Positions 213 through 8,932 of a stretch of 64,000 bases of DNA are shown in pieces. The stretch comes from Longimicrobiales bacterium (lineage in GTDB: Bacteria; Gemmatimonadota; Gemmatimonadetes; Longimicrobiales; Gaopeijiaceae), in contig OZ241892.1 of the NCBI GenBank assembly GCA_965203485.1, positions 2,688,001-2,752,000 on the forward strand, in the 5' to 3' direction. Position 1 is the first letter of the stretch. Every line of letters begins with the position of its first letter. A program made the translations under genes and the position numbers. Below the pieces are notes generated by a model. The model was not told the DNA's origin. It made no database searches and was given only the letters and a program-made list of their open reading frames with translations.

Positions 213-1328
213 TTGGCAACCTCCCGGAGATTCACCATCTACCTCGCCGGCCCCATCAACGGCTGCAACGAGGGACAGAAGCACAACTGGCGCAGAATGG
301 TCAGGAAGAAGTACGCCGGCGACTTCGACTTCATCGATCCCAGCACCGACGACATGGCCTCCGCAGGCGCTAGCCCACGCGACTTGGTGGAGGCCGACGT
401 CAAGAACATCGAGCGCTCGGACGGCATCCTGGCCAACATGTGGCGCGAGTCCATCGGCACGACGCTCGGCATCGTGCACGCCTCGCGCAAGGACCGCCCC
501 GTCGTGGTCGCCGACCCGAACGGGTTGCGCCACCGAATGCTGGAGTTCTACGCCGACGCGACGGCGGACAACCCGCTTCGGGCCGCAAAGAGACTGCGCG
601 AAATCCTGCGGGCGGAAACGAGCTGGCACGTGCTCAAGTCCGGGGGACGCAGGGAACCGTTCACGCGGCGCAAGATCAGGTTGTCCGTCCAGCAGCTCTG
701 CCGGCAAGCCAACGCCGACGACCTCGGCGTCCCCGTCGTCGTCTTGTCTCAGGTCATGGAGATCCTGGCCAAGGGAGACCGCCGCATCGAGAACACGATC
801 GCCACGACGGACATCGGCGACGCCGTGCTAAGGGTCCTCAAGAGAATGGAGCGCAAGCGAGACCCCGACTTCTTGGGCCTCTCCAATCAATGGCGGCAGC
901 ATTCCCAGGACCGCCGCGTCGCCCATCCGCGCCGCCCGCAACCTCCCGCGCCCGGCCGGATTCGCGTCCGGATCATCTCTCGGAAGGCGCACAGCACAAT
1001 CTGGGGCAAGGCGATTCGCCGCATCGAAGACATTCCGTCCCCCGCCGCCCGGCGGGTACTGGACACCGTTCAGTCCGCCCCCGACGTGGCCGAGATCACT
1101 TTCGGCCCGTTCAGCAACAAGATGTCAAAGGTCTCATGCTGCGCCTCCGTCGCCGAGTCGGACACCCCATTCGTGATCGAGGGACGGCTGTTCGACCGAG
1201 GCGAAAAGGGCACGTTGCAGACGTTCCAGGTGCGGGTCCGGGACGCCGACGCGAAGGCGCAGGTCATGCACCACATCGCCAACGCCCTGAAACGAGGCGG
1301 GCTGTGGACCGGCCACGACGACATCTGA
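213..1328 (+). CDS. Multidomain protein: nucleoside 2-deoxyribosyltransferase-like domain + ATP-cone + DUF2103-like C-terminal domain
   Basis: IYLAGP...W...FIDP...D...I..SDGILA...SIGT (NDT/Rcl fold); VLKSGGRREPFTRRKI (ATP-cone start); C-terminal HST...ITFG...Q.F.V resembles DUF2103. Frame is open from base 3; TTG at 213 (MATSRRFTIYLAG) chosen as the likely start. Confidence 0.7.
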   Translation: MATSRRFTIYLAGPINGCNEGQKHNWRRMVRKKYAGDFDFIDPSTDDMASAGASPRDLVEADVKNIERSDGILANMWRESIGTTLGIVHASRKDRPVVVADPNGLRHRMLEFYADATADNPLRAAKRLREILRAETSWHVLKSGGRREPFTRRKIRLSVQQLCRQANADDLGVPVVVLSQVMEILAKGDRRIENTIATTDIGDAVLRVLKRMERKRDPDFLGLSNQWRQHSQDRRVAHPRRPQPPAPGRIRVRIISRKAHSTIWGKAIRRIEDIPSPAARRVLDTVQSAPDVAEITFGPFSNKMSKVSCCASVAESDTPFVIEGRLFDRGEKGTLQTFQVRVRDADAKAQVMHHIANALKRGGLWTGHDDI

Positions 1329-1394: not shown

Positions 1395-1424
1395 TTGACC
1401 GACCCTCCCCCGTCGCGTTATGAT
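1395..1424 (+). promoter_or_regulatory. Putative sigma70 promoter of the ATPase/nuclease pair
   Basis: TTGACC-N18-TATGAT about 60 nt upstream of ATG 1486. Confidence 0.55.
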
Positions 1425-1485: not shown

Positions 1486-2877
1486 ATGATCTTTCGCTTC
1501 GAGAACATCGGCCCGATCACACGCGCTGATCTTGCGCTCGGCGATTTCACGATTATTGCAGGGCGCAACAACACGGGCAAGACCTACGCCGTCTACGCGC
1601 TCTACGGCTTTCTGAAGAACTGGCGTGCCCTCCGGACGTCCCGCACGCTCATTGCCCAACTCCCTCATCTTCGCCTGACGTCCTCCAAGCTCCATTCGCT
1701 CGCAAACGACCTGGCGACGTCGGGCACCGGTCGCATTTCCGTATCCGACAACGCGCTCATGAATGCACGATTCGTTCTCGTCGATCGACTGGCCTCGCAT
1801 TTCTCCGATGCCGGTCTCCCCGCCGTCTTTAGTTCTACTTCCGACGCCTTCGAGAACGCGAAGTTGCATATCGCGTTGAACGACGATCTCCCCGGCCATG
1901 GCTTTACGCCCGTAGACATTGAGACTCCCGGAAAGAATCGCCTGATCGCAGAATACAAGGACGGCCATATCGTCGTTTCGTTCGTGCTCGAGGGAAACAA
2001 TCACTACGGACCCCATGCCGTCGCACGAATGCTTTCACCGTTGCTATTCATATTCTTGTGTCCGCGATTTCCGCAACCGTTCATTCTTTCAGCCGAGCGC
2101 TTCGGAATATCGTTGTTCTACAAGGAACTTGATTTCACCAAGAATCAACTGCTTGACTTGCTCCAGAACATCGACGACCGAAGCAGATCTCCGTATCTAA
2201 TAATCGACAAGACGTTGAGCAGGTATTCGCAACCGATAAAAGACAACATCGAGTACACCAGAGGCTTGTCCGATCTCAAGCGCATGAAGAATTCACTGGC
2301 GGATCGCGAAGTGTTCAACGACGTCAGAGACATGATGGGCGGCGACTATCGCGCTACGGACGACGCCATCCGCTTTCGTTCGAAGACGAGAGGCAAGCGC
2401 AGATTCGACGTTCCGCTTCATCTTGCGTCCTCGTCTGTTCGCGGGCTGTCCGACCTGTACTTCTACCTTCGTCACAAGGCAACGGACAACGATCTTCTGA
2501 TTATTGACGAACCCGAAAGTCATTTGGATACTCGTAATCAGATTGCCGTTGCACGGCTGCTGTCTCGACTAGTGCGAATGGGCATAAGAATTCTTGTGAC
2601 TACGCACAGTGACTATCTTCTCAAGGAAATAAACAACCTCGTGATGCTTCATCAAGTCGCATCTGTCAATGGAGACGCAATTCGAGAATTCGGGTACACG
2701 GAGCAGGATGCCTTGGACCCCACGCGTGTGCTCGCGTACGTTGCGGACCGACATACACTGAAGAGAGCCACTGTGGATGAATACGGCGTCGATATGCCAT
2801 TGTTCGACGATGCTATTGATGACATAAATCATATATCCAATTCTTTGTCGGCGTTCATCGACACCAGCAAATCATAA
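1486..2877 (+). CDS. ABC-type (AAA_15/AAA_21-like) ATPase, putative defence-system sensor
   Basis: Walker A GRNNTGKT, signature-like SSSVRG, Walker B LLIIDEPESHL, H-loop TTHSDY; visibly AT-richer than the backbone. Confidence 0.9.
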   Translation: MIFRFENIGPITRADLALGDFTIIAGRNNTGKTYAVYALYGFLKNWRALRTSRTLIAQLPHLRLTSSKLHSLANDLATSGTGRISVSDNALMNARFVLVDRLASHFSDAGLPAVFSSTSDAFENAKLHIALNDDLPGHGFTPVDIETPGKNRLIAEYKDGHIVVSFVLEGNNHYGPHAVARMLSPLLFIFLCPRFPQPFILSAERFGISLFYKELDFTKNQLLDLLQNIDDRSRSPYLIIDKTLSRYSQPIKDNIEYTRGLSDLKRMKNSLADREVFNDVRDMMGGDYRATDDAIRFRSKTRGKRRFDVPLHLASSSVRGLSDLYFYLRHKATDNDLLIIDEPESHLDTRNQIAVARLLSRLVRMGIRILVTTHSDYLLKEINNLVMLHQVASVNGDAIREFGYTEQDALDPTRVLAYVADRHTLKRATVDEYGVDMPLFDDAIDDINHISNSLSAFIDTSKS

Positions 2878-2878
2878 T

Positions 2879-3454
2879 ATGGCCATGTCTTTCACCGATC
2901 AATTGCGTGATGTCCTGGAACCGAGGCGCCTGCTGATGCTCGAGCAAGGTGACGAAGACGGTTTAGCAAGGCTAGTCTTGAGGGACAGGCAATCCGAAGC
3001 GGTATTTGCGATTACCGCAATGCCGACTTCTGCGACTATTGTAAATTTTGATTCGATGAAGCACTTGGCGGGTATAAGGGAGACCAAGGGAAGCCAACTC
3101 AAGAAAATATGCGATTGCTTGATCGTCCTGCGCAACGACGAACGATATGAGGCCGTGCTGGTTGAGATGAAGAAGACGATGCGACATGGTGACGAGACCG
3201 CGAAAGAACAACTTCGTCGATCGTTGCCGCTATTGAAGTACTTGAAGAGCGTATGCGCGATCGAATATCGGAGCAAGCCGAGCGTGCGCGTGCACTACGC
3301 CGTCGTGGCCTACCAACGCAGCGACCGCTTTCCGAAGCAAGGGATTCGGAATTCGTTGGGGAGCCGGAGCGCCGACGAGGACTACGAAGGTATTCGGGTC
3401 AGGACGATCGTGGGATCTCCGACGACGGCGGCATCGTTGTGGACTGCGGACTGA
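2879..3454 (+). CDS. Hypothetical protein, putative PD-(D/E)xK-like nuclease
   Basis: Starts 1 nt after the ATPase stop; CDCLIV...LVEMK...AKEQL fits the D...ExK...Q restriction-endonuclease-like motif; AT-rich. Confidence 0.7.
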   Translation: MAMSFTDQLRDVLEPRRLLMLEQGDEDGLARLVLRDRQSEAVFAITAMPTSATIVNFDSMKHLAGIRETKGSQLKKICDCLIVLRNDERYEAVLVEMKKTMRHGDETAKEQLRRSLPLLKYLKSVCAIEYRSKPSVRVHYAVVAYQRSDRFPKQGIRNSLGSRSADEDYEGIRVRTIVGSPTTAASLWTAD

Positions 3455-6762: not shown

Positions 6763-6800
6763 GGGCGGGGGGTTTTGGGCCCCACTGAAGAAGCAGAGAG

Positions 6801-6884
6801 CGGAGGCGGAGGGACTCGAACCCCCAAGTGCTCGCGCACGCCGCATTTCGAGTGCGGTGCCTTACCAGTTAGGACTACGCCTCC
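6801..6884 (-). tRNA. tRNA-Ser(CGA)
   Basis: Cloverleaf; anticodon arm CCGCA-CT CGA AA-TGCGG; long variable arm; GGTTCGAGTCC. Confidence 0.95.
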
Positions 6885-6918
6885 AAGTGGTGCGGCCGGA
6901 TGGGTGTGCCGACCGAAA

Positions 6919-6992
6919 TCGGGGCGCCCGGATTTGAACCGGGGACCTCTGCGACCCGAACGCAGCGCTCTACCGGGCTGAGCCACGCCCCG
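6919..6992 (-). tRNA. tRNA-Pro(CGG)
   Basis: CGGGGCG acceptor; CTGCG-TT CGG GT-CGCAG; GGTTCAAATCC. Confidence 0.95.
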
Positions 6993-7125
6993 TGGTTTTT
7001 GGATGATTGCGGCATCGGTCTCGCGGAACCGCCGAGAACGCCCCGGACGTCGCCGCAAACGCCGCGGCGCTGTCCTTGTGGCAACCCGGCAACCCAGCGA
7101 TCCGGCGATCCCAGGAACACGAGAG

Positions 7126-7209
7126 CGGACGGGGTGGGATTCGAACCCACGCGGGCGGATGCCCACACGATTTCCAGTCGTGCGCCTTAAGCCACTCGGC
7201 CACCCGTCC
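7126..7209 (-). tRNA. tRNA-Ser(GGA)
   Basis: CACGA-CT GGA AA-TCGTG; long variable arm. Confidence 0.95.
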
Positions 7210-7273
7210 TCGGGACGCCCCCGGACCACGGCGCCGCCTGCGCGCCCAGCCCGGCGTCCTTCGGAACAGAAAG

Positions 7274-7358
7274 CGGAGGGAGTGGGATTCGAACCCACGT
7301 GGCCACATGGACCAACGCCTTAGCAGGGCGCCGCTTTTAGCCGCTCAGCCATCCCTCC
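7274..7358 (-). tRNA. tRNA-Ser(GCT)
   Basis: GCGCC-CT GCT AA-GGCGT; long variable arm. Confidence 0.95.
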
Positions 7359-7362
7359 CGAA

Positions 7363-7435
7363 TAGCCCCGCCTGGGCTCGAACCAGGACTCTTCTGATCC
7401 AGAGTCAGACGTGTTGCCAATTACACCACGGGGCT
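7363..7435 (-). tRNA. tRNA-Gln(CTG)
   Basis: TCTGA-CT CTG GA-TCAGA. Confidence 0.95.
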
Positions 7436-7458
7436 GTTGCCGGCGCCGAGGCGCCGAG

Positions 7459-7531
7459 AGCCACCGGTCGGACTTGAACCGACGACCCCGTCATTACGAG
7501 TGACGTGCTCTACCAGCTGAGCTACGGTGGC
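7459..7531 (-). tRNA. tRNA-Thr(CGT)
   Basis: CGTCA-CT CGT AA-TGACG. Confidence 0.95.
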
Positions 7532-7567
7532 GTGCCCGGCCCCCGCCGCGCTGGGCGAGGCCGGAAG

Positions 7568-7640
7568 TGGAGCCGAGGGGAGTCGAACCCCTGACCTCAG
7601 CATTGCGAACGCTGCGCTCTCCCAACTGAGCTACGGCCCC
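7568..7640 (-). tRNA. tRNA-Ala(CGC)
   Basis: GGGGCCG acceptor with G3:U70; CAGCG-TT CGC AA-TGCTG. Confidence 0.95.
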
Positions 7641-7653
7641 TGTTTCCACGAAA

Positions 7654-7727
7654 TGGGCGCGACAGGACTCGAACCTGTGACCTCCACGATGTCAACGTGG
7701 CACTCTAACCAGCTGAGCTACGCGCCC
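7654..7727 (-). tRNA. tRNA-Val(GAC)
   Basis: CCACG-TT GAC AT-CGTGG. Confidence 0.95.
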
Positions 7728-7750
7728 TTCTTCCGGCGGAGCCCGCGAAG

Positions 7751-7824
7751 TGCGCCCGGGAGGACTCGAACCCCCAACCCCCTGATCCGTAGTCAGGTAC
7801 TCTATCCAATTGAGCTACGGGCGC
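7751..7824 (-). tRNA. tRNA-Arg(ACG)
   Basis: CCTGA-CT ACG GA-TCAGG. Confidence 0.95.
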
Positions 7825-7886
7825 GCCCGTCCGGAGCAAAACGAGCGCCACAGCCGCTCGGCGCCGCCCTCCGTCTCTGCGTTCCA

Positions 7887-7970
7887 TGCCCACGACAGGA
7901 CTCGAACCTGTACGTCCTCTCGAACACTGGTCCCTCAAACCAGCCTGTCTACCAATTCCAGCACGTGGGC
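7887..7970 (-). tRNA. tRNA-Leu(GAG)
   Basis: CTGGT-TT GAG GG-ACCAG; long variable arm. Confidence 0.95.
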
Positions 7971-8028
7971 GGTCATCGCGGCCCCGCGCGAGAGGCCACG
8001 AGGCGCTCGCCGCCGGGAACCCGCGAAG

Positions 8029-8113
8029 TGCTCGGGGAGGGATTCGAACCCTCACGGGGTTAGCCCCCACAGGATCCTGAATCCTGCGCGTCTACCAATT
8101 CCGCCACCCGAGC
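8029..8113 (-). tRNA. tRNA-Leu(CAG)
   Basis: CAGGA-TT CAG GA-TCCTG; long variable arm. Confidence 0.95.
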
Positions 8114-8143
8114 TTGGCCGGGCCGCGACCCGGCGGCCGGCAG

Positions 8144-8216
8144 TGGAGCCGAGGGGAGTCGAACCCCTGACCTCCTGAATGCCATTCAGGCGCTCTCCCA
8201 ACTGAGCTACGGCCCC
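8144..8216 (-). tRNA. tRNA-Ala(GGC)
   Basis: CCTGA-AT GGC AT-TCAGG; G3:U70. Confidence 0.95.
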
Positions 8217-8296
8217 AGCATTGCCGGAAGCGACGCGAACTGGGAAGCCCGGTCCGCGATCGCTCTTGCGACCCTTGTTTTCAAACACCGCCTCAG

Positions 8297-8371
8297 CGGG
8301 GCTGACGGGACTCGAACCCGCGGCCTCCGGTGTGACAGACCGGCACTCTAACCGAACTGAGCTACAGCCCC
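8297..8371 (-). tRNA. tRNA-Asp(GTC)
   Basis: CCGGT-CT GTC AC-ACCGG. Confidence 0.95.
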
Positions 8372-8471
8372 CCGATCCCGTTTTGTCCGTGGAACTTCCC
8401 GGTCCGGCACGGCCGTTGCGCCGGCCCCCTTCCCCGGCTTGCACTGGCCGCCCCAGCCCCGGAAGCCCCGA

Positions 8472-8543
8472 TACCCTCACGGGGAATCGAACCCCGATCT
8501 CCACCTTGAAAGAGTGGTGTCCTAACCGTTAGACGATGAGGGC
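8472..8543 (-). tRNA. tRNA-Glu(TTC)
   Basis: CCACT-CT TTC AA-GGTGG. Confidence 0.95.
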
Positions 8544-8554
8544 GCCGCTCGAGG

Positions 8555-8628
8555 CAGGCCCGGAGGGACTCGAACCCCCAACCGCCGGTTTTGGAGACCG
8601 GTGCTCTACCAAGTTGAGCTACGGACCT
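8555..8628 (-). tRNA. tRNA-Trp(CCA)
   Basis: CCGGT-CT CCA AA-ACCGG. Confidence 0.95.
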
Positions 8629-8647
8629 GTCTTTCCCGCCTTCTCCA

Positions 8648-8720
8648 TGGCCAGGGGCGGAATCGAACCGCCGACACCGCGATTTTCAGTCGCGTGCTCT
8701 ACCAACTGAGCTACCTGGCC
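8648..8720 (-). tRNA. tRNA-Phe(GAA)
   Basis: CGCGA-CT GAA AA-TCGCG. Confidence 0.95.
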
Positions 8721-8858
8721 ATCCCCACGCCCGCCGACAAAAAACCGACCGGGCTGGTTCCGGCCACGGCCTCGCCGCCGCGCCCGTCCCAGAACCCTGG
8801 CCGGCCTGCCGTCCGAAGACCGGCGCCAACTCCGTGCGCCGTCGCCGAACGTGTCGAG

Positions 8859-8932
<74 letters not shown>

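Follow-up and report, generated by a model that had tools for sequence, protein, structure and literature searches.

A putative nucleotide-sensing protein family joining a glutamate-less NDT-fold domain and an ATP-cone to exchangeable output domains

The gene and its locus

In this study, we analysed the gene at positions 213..1328 (+ strand) of a 64,000-nucleotide stretch of a Longimicrobiales genome, referred to here as the window. The open reading frame is a real and conserved gene: about 200 homologues were retrieved, the nearest relatives coming from Longimicrobiales (Gemmatimonadota) MAGs, and the start Met occupies column 1 in 109 of the 116 alignment rows (the query with 115 of the 120 homologues listed, the self match and four partial sequences being left out). 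The 371-aa product consists of a pseudo-NDT domain, an ATP-cone, a linker and a DUF2103-like domain. Three modules within this single frame had been read in the preliminary description, and fold and profile searches together with an AlphaFold2 model (mean pLDDT 89, pTM 0.64) recovered an NDT fold, an ATP-cone and a third domain, all ordered, with a linker (915..962, +) that is disordered at aa 237-250 (pLDDT below 50). The dN/dS per domain was 0.11-0.32 (two relatives compared), and that of the linker was about 1 in the single unsaturated comparison, with L001, so that its sequence is barely constrained. No CARF domain was matched in the protein by Pfam or PADLOC, the fold of its N-terminal domain being that of NDT, and PADLOC did not match the protein to HEC-07.

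The Longimicrobiales site of the gene lies between a repeat-rich gene, which we take to be hydrolase-like, and an outer-membrane receptor gene, and the GC3 of the gene (0.88) is similar to that of this resident downstream receptor gene. In the window it is followed by an ABC-ATPase and nuclease pair of the PD-T4-4/PDC-M47 type (1486..3454, +; PADLOC, E 1e-105), to which it had previously been linked. The same strand and a distance of only 157 bp would suit an accessory subunit of this PD-T4-4-type system; against this, the pair has its own sigma-70-like promoter match ahead of the ATPase gene (1395..1424, +; 10/12, a consensus match only) and foreign codon usage (GC3 0.64 and 0.67 versus 0.88), a second copy of it lies 550 kb off (G000:C1:2137342-2139304; 51% and 35% identical), and the ATPase occurs in none of the other loci examined for the gene, a homologue being found elsewhere in the genome in three of five related genomes. 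The accessory role is thus very improbable and already largely refuted: the pair is a separate recent insertion and no partner of the gene. It was inserted at a small hotspot that also accepts a Schlafen/AlbA_2 gene, which lies directly upstream of our gene here and directly downstream of it in the closest relative (L001). The copy here, just upstream of the window (G000:C1:2686731-2687990), also carries HATPase_c_4 and is 73% identical to L001:11152-12567. The window ATPase was also considered as Menshen NsnB, an identity rejected because its PD-T4-4 score is much the better one. On the minus strand, 3.3 kb past the pair, lie 17 clustered tRNA genes (6800-8932). Some 20 to 12 kb ahead of the window, a low-GC stretch presumably carries an IS3-like transposase, MazG-like, UDG-like and Mrr-like genes and a second AlbA_2-like ORF; this stretch is likely a defence island, and two hydrolase-like genes separate it from the gene.

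A probable sensor module with a lost nucleophile

The pseudo-NDT domain (225..614, +; aa 5-134) matches nucleoside deoxyribosyltransferases and (d)NMP glycosidases of the DNPH1/Rcl/MilB type in fold searches, sharing their flavodoxin-like NDT fold. Using a profile that bridges the fusion family and its stand-alone relatives, aligned to rat Rcl, we found that Asp62, Ser80, Gly82 and Gly86 fall on the Asp, Ser, Gly and nucleophile Glu of Rcl. Tyr10, Asp62, Ser80 and Gly82 are kept in all 116 rows, and the replacement of the catalytic Glu that the preliminary description noticed in this one protein (Gly86, codon GGC, 468..470, +) proved to be a family-wide trait, with Gly in 115 of the 116 aligned homologues. 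According to the available part of PMC10603095, the triad of DNPH1 is Y24/D80/E104 and S98 contacts the phosphate, the Tyr favours deoxyribose (MilB has Phe there), and substitution of the Glu leaves DNPH1 and MilB able to bind uncut substrate (PMC10603095; 4ohb). Since the deoxyribose-favouring Tyr and the phosphate-binding Ser are kept, the predicted ligand of the pocket is a dNMP.

The nucleophile site is Gly across the classes of output domain found behind this module, namely in 188 of 190 members with a DUF2103-like tail, 19 of 24 with a BECR-type tail, 10 of 10 with a Rossmann-like tail, and both members each with RelE-like and with histidine kinase and receiver outputs. In five BECR-tail members the residue is instead Glu, Asp or Ser; a quick tree (midpoint root, SH-aLRT support only) places those with Glu or Asp in a nested subclade, pointing to a secondary change at the site. 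Members with a Rossmann-like tail do not conserve Asp62. In the stand-alone phage NDTs closest to the fusion family, the catalytic Glu is present in 47 of 47 full-length sequences (44 by pattern search and three more from the printed sequences, with two truncated sequences set aside), and the loss of Glu is thus specific to the fusion lineage. These come from 49 viral loci (L067-L115) that share the fusion-family motif and encode stand-alone NDTs; such NDT/DNPH1-like proteins of 120-180 aa with an intact Glu are widespread on viral contigs.

The ATP-cone (618..914, +; aa 136-234) exceeds the curated Pfam cut-off for PF03477 and superposes on the cones of ribonucleotide reductase (RNR) and NrdR in fold searches. 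Its Val140, Lys142, Glu148 and Lys154 correspond to NrdR V48, K50, E56 and K62 and are retained in 115, 112, 107 and 107 of the 116 rows, respectively. In NrdR, as described in the part of PMC9110341 available, mutation of these four residues impairs nucleotide binding and alters the oligomeric state. With ligand-binding residues kept in both the pseudo-NDT domain and the cone, the earlier proposal of two nucleotide-binding modules is supported, as a prediction from conserved residues. Retron Ec86 has an NDT-fold defence protein that acts as an active effector bound to RT and msDNA; the NDT of the window, in contrast, is without the nucleophile, and no reverse transcriptase was found among the 124 immediate neighbours scanned. 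We read the NDT domain as a probable sensor and not as a retron-like effector, and consider it highly likely that the N-module (pseudo-NDT plus ATP-cone) senses nucleotides without being catalytic.

Tail swapping became evident when the N-module was used as the sole query. After deduplication, it was fused to a DUF2103-like domain in 190 proteins, to a coiled coil and BECR-type domain in 24, to a coiled coil and Rossmann-like domain in 10, to a RelE-like domain in two and to a histidine kinase and receiver in two, with 11 truncated, counts that mirror the search strategy and not true abundance. Among the 13 BECR-type tails scanned by PADLOC, nine match HEC-07 and seven of these also NsnC, whereas L053, L055, P0235 and L182 match neither; the best E values for BECR/RelE-type tails reach 6e-16 for HEC-07 and 1e-12 for NsnC. 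In P0250 and P0251 the N-module is joined to HATPase_c and receiver domains, in a sensor position. A domain pair that is coupled to RNases in one set of proteins and to a kinase in another is most readily taken as a sensor; the DUF2103-like tail, found behind CARF elsewhere and here in the place of the RNases, is most readily taken as an effector. Because the N-module swaps its tails and the tail swaps its inputs, both halves are modular, and the proposal that the C-terminal domain is a controlled effector is borne out to the extent that domain swapping marks it as an exchangeable unit. The kinase-receiver and Rossmann-like fusions imply that toxicity of the output is not obligatory. A pseudo-NDT domain is joined to kinase/receiver domains in P0250, P0251 and P0252, with the ATP-cone in the first two, probably as a hybrid kinase sensing nucleotides. 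In one lineage (L009:10001-14398; P0236) the gene continues in frame into the downstream outer-membrane receptor gene, giving a 1466-aa record with nine member sequences, probably by loss of the stop.

The DUF2103-like tail (963..1310, +; aa 251-366), delimited by alignment and by profile and fold searches, has an invariant His260 and Gln336, and gave neither a confident PDB match nor a PADLOC match. We take its His-Ser-Thr motif to resemble that of DUF2103. The DUF2103 label fails against the Pfam model: PF09876 had no match at E up to 1 across the genome itself, and it was absent for the query and among the best 25 of 43 families for the 116 members. In remote comparisons, hhalign gave a probability of 0.4 with a single weak PF09876 member (L198), and the broad profile was unmatched. 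The tail does fit the looser 'DUF2103-like' class of Cas_APE2256/CARF7 fusions, in that the tail profile matches three such proteins (P0181, P0215 and P0232; E 4e-10, 4e-5 and 6e-4) and profile-profile comparison with the CARF7-fused set, picked by the same search, reached 99.4%. A DUF2103-like domain is the effector in Menshen NsnC and also occurs beside Cas_APE2256 (PMC12065111).

Distribution and genomic neighbourhood

Hosts of the gene belong to eight named phyla, which are intermixed in the tree, and several of them bear sponge-symbiont names. It is present in three of 41 near relatives, all of one genus, absent from all 38 sampled genomes of other genera of the family and order, and found in at least two of 401 genomes of the phylum. 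In seven Longimicrobiales genomes it sits at one locus, in a clade spanning 48-81% identity and with host-like codon usage, and this residence is stabler than that of many defence genes. No partner gene recurred across unrelated hosts among the loci compared, and the gene is solitary. In 6 of the 63 genome loci the N-module is distributed over different reading frames, for which assembly error is possible.

The preliminary description placed the gene beside defence-like genes, and we compared neighbours predicted by a composition heuristic, scanning 124 of 177 with duplicates and syntenic Longimicrobiales flanks dropped. Of the 76 immediate neighbours in genome loci, 18 belonged to defence, TA or RM families, compared with 9 of 104 control genes lying beyond 6 kb (p 0.006). 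The count became 19 of 93 when dropped neighbours were re-added by our own reading (p 0.024), and 23 of 124 for all neighbours scanned, with a p of 0.036, or of 0.098 counting two ambiguous control matches. The categories behind these values were set after the matches were viewed, and related loci are not independent. Most neighbours are metabolic or without a family, about four fifths not being defence genes. The enrichment beside defence genes (about 20-24% versus 9%) looks real but is modest.

Relation to known systems and proposed mechanism

The (d)NMP N-glycosidases DNPH1/Rcl, MilB/BcmB and phage DmtZ share with the family the fold and, in register, the Tyr, the Asp and the phosphate-binding Ser-x-Gly, but here Glu is replaced by Gly family-wide, a new invariant Asn-Met-Trp-x-Glu precedes the Ser, and a cone and an output domain are fused. 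Unlike the cones of NrdR and ribonucleotide reductase, this one has no zinc ribbon or reductase attached and lies between a pseudo-enzyme and a predicted toxin. The sensor-effector layout and the tail pool of BECR/RelE and DUF2103-like domains recall the CARF7_DUF2103 and CARF7_RelE effectors and Menshen NsnC (inactive PIN plus effector), the last likewise having a dead enzyme as its N-domain; here, in contrast, there is no CARF or PIN domain, CRISPR locus or NsnA/NsnB, and the solitary gene shows neither the conserved partners of a three-gene Menshen operon (NsnA DUF262 plus NsnB ATPase) across loci nor an adjacent NsnA. HEC-07 is likewise a one-gene system and its RelE-type RNase tail is homologous to the BECR tails of the relatives, but the N-terminal domains differ and the window protein has a DUF2103-like tail. 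In the accessible part of bioRxiv 2024.01.29.577857, HEC-07 is among the seven of nine systems that protect E. coli. PUA-Cal-HAD, a defence triggered by m6-dAMP, resembles the proposed logic, as far as its available description goes, in that an effector responds to a dNMP released when phage infection causes chromosome breakdown, and it indicates that a dNMP-surge type of trigger exists in nature; its folds are unrelated, it is multi-gene and its output is dNTP depletion. Thus the family works like known ligand-gated sensor-effector proteins and belongs to none of those compared, its sensor module being new, as are the N-module fusions to BECR/RelE-type, Rossmann-like or kinase and receiver outputs. 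PADLOC and NCBIfam have no model for the fusion family. No description of the architecture was found in the full-text literature, a search that largely excluded subscription journals and bioRxiv supplements and leaves room for a mention in a comparative-genomics table, and term searches found no ATP-cone in the main text of PMC13056530, in the available text of PMC3710099 or in one supplement of PMC13069673.

We propose, with a probability of roughly 0.55, that the gene encodes a self-contained nucleotide-gated one-gene toxin, probably anti-phage. The pseudo-NDT domain is predicted to bind a deoxynucleoside monophosphate and the cone ATP or dATP; phage-driven DNA breakdown or dNTP overproduction would likely shift the dNMP and ATP/dATP pools, the oligomeric state would change, as it might by analogy with NrdR and ribonucleotide reductase cones and with dimeric DNPH1, and the tail would be switched on and arrest the cell, most likely through RNA cutting, a chemistry suggested by the BECR/RelE RNase slot that the tail occupies. 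That the output serves defence is rather likely, and the phage trigger is a putative one; a dNMP/dATP surge as the signal is a tentative proposal. Similarly tentative is the wider generalisation to an undescribed class of one-gene immune sensors without a messenger synthase, in which a dead dNMP glycosidase and an ATP-cone would jointly read dNMP and dATP/ATP in the host pool as a sign of infection and switch on outputs that can be exchanged, including an enzyme whose fold has yet to be solved.

Several observations speak against the toxin reading. Most neighbours are metabolic, the Longimicrobiales locus is stable, and the tail lacks a catalytic assignment as well as a PADLOC match; the kinase-receiver and Rossmann-like outputs, the loss of Asp62 in the Rossmann-tail class and the five BECR-tail members with Glu, Asp or Ser at the site point the same way. 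The long stay at one locus, the kinase and receiver fusions, the four fifths of neighbours outside defence and the sensing of ADP and AMP by the NrdR cone (PMC9110341, available part) would also suit a phage-unrelated regulator that reads AMP/dNMP and ATP/dATP when the cell starves or is under symbiotic stress and then induces dormancy or regulates genes, its tail binding RNA or protein instead of killing. Such a regulator is unlikely given the intermixed host phyla, the scarcity of the gene in other genera and in the phylum, the exchange of tails with HEC-07/NsnC-type RNases and the CARF7 fusions. The near-invariant Glu79 (198 of 201 rows of a wider set) could have a chemical role, and Glu79, Asn75 and Trp77 are invariant in all 116 rows, as are Tyr10 and Asp62, which would fit a still enzymatic NDT domain that uses Glu79 or water as nucleophile and depletes nucleotides as a cone-controlled effector; NDT domains serve as effectors in other conflict proteins, according to the available portion of PMC3710099. 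However, Glu79 aligns with the Rcl Pro that precedes the phosphate-binding Ser, seven residues from the nucleophile position, the early-branching L051, L052, P0250 and P0251 combine Gly at the nucleophile site with a Pro in place of Glu79, and this reading does not account for the exchange of tails for RNases and kinases, which makes this enzyme highly improbable. Only slightly less improbable is an integrated decoy or modified-base sensor, in which the pseudo-NDT would have arisen from phage-type dNMP glycosidases and would associate with an incoming phage NDT subunit, or bind the modified dNMP made by such phages, and fire the tail. Viral NDTs that share the N-terminal motif and keep the Glu are the nearest stand-alone relatives retrieved, DNPH1-type enzymes form dimers whose active sites span the two subunits (PMC10603095, as available), phage DmtZ is an NDT-family dAMP hydrolase of Z-DNA synthesis (PMC12884076, as available), and PUA-Cal-HAD is a precedent for modified-dNMP sensing, as far as described; but bacterial stand-alone copies exist too (L065, L066; H1), and the closeness to phage NDTs is partly selection, since the viral search used the motif of the fusion family itself.

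What sets off most bacterial defences is still to be learned, and few cases of direct nucleotide-pool sensing are on record. The nucleotide-gated toxin proposed here is a compact one-gene test case that offers a predicted ligand pocket, defined residues for mutation and natural controls, namely the Glu-bearing stand-alone relatives and the BECR-tail versions with a recognisable RNase; if it holds, it would bring the ATP-cone, a module familiar from NrdR and ribonucleotide reductase, into immunity. The DUF2103-like domain is also made testable, and may explain uncharacterised CARF7 and Menshen effectors. In addition, this tail was found in about 320-aa proteins with another N-domain (P0188, P0201, P0207, P0208, P0218, P0231 and P0234), which have no PADLOC match and are NsnC-like in size and layout, and behind a YaaA-like/DUF6884 N-domain in P0196, P0197, P0209, P0211, P0214, P0219, P0220, P0223, P0224 and P0233, a second sensor-effector family.
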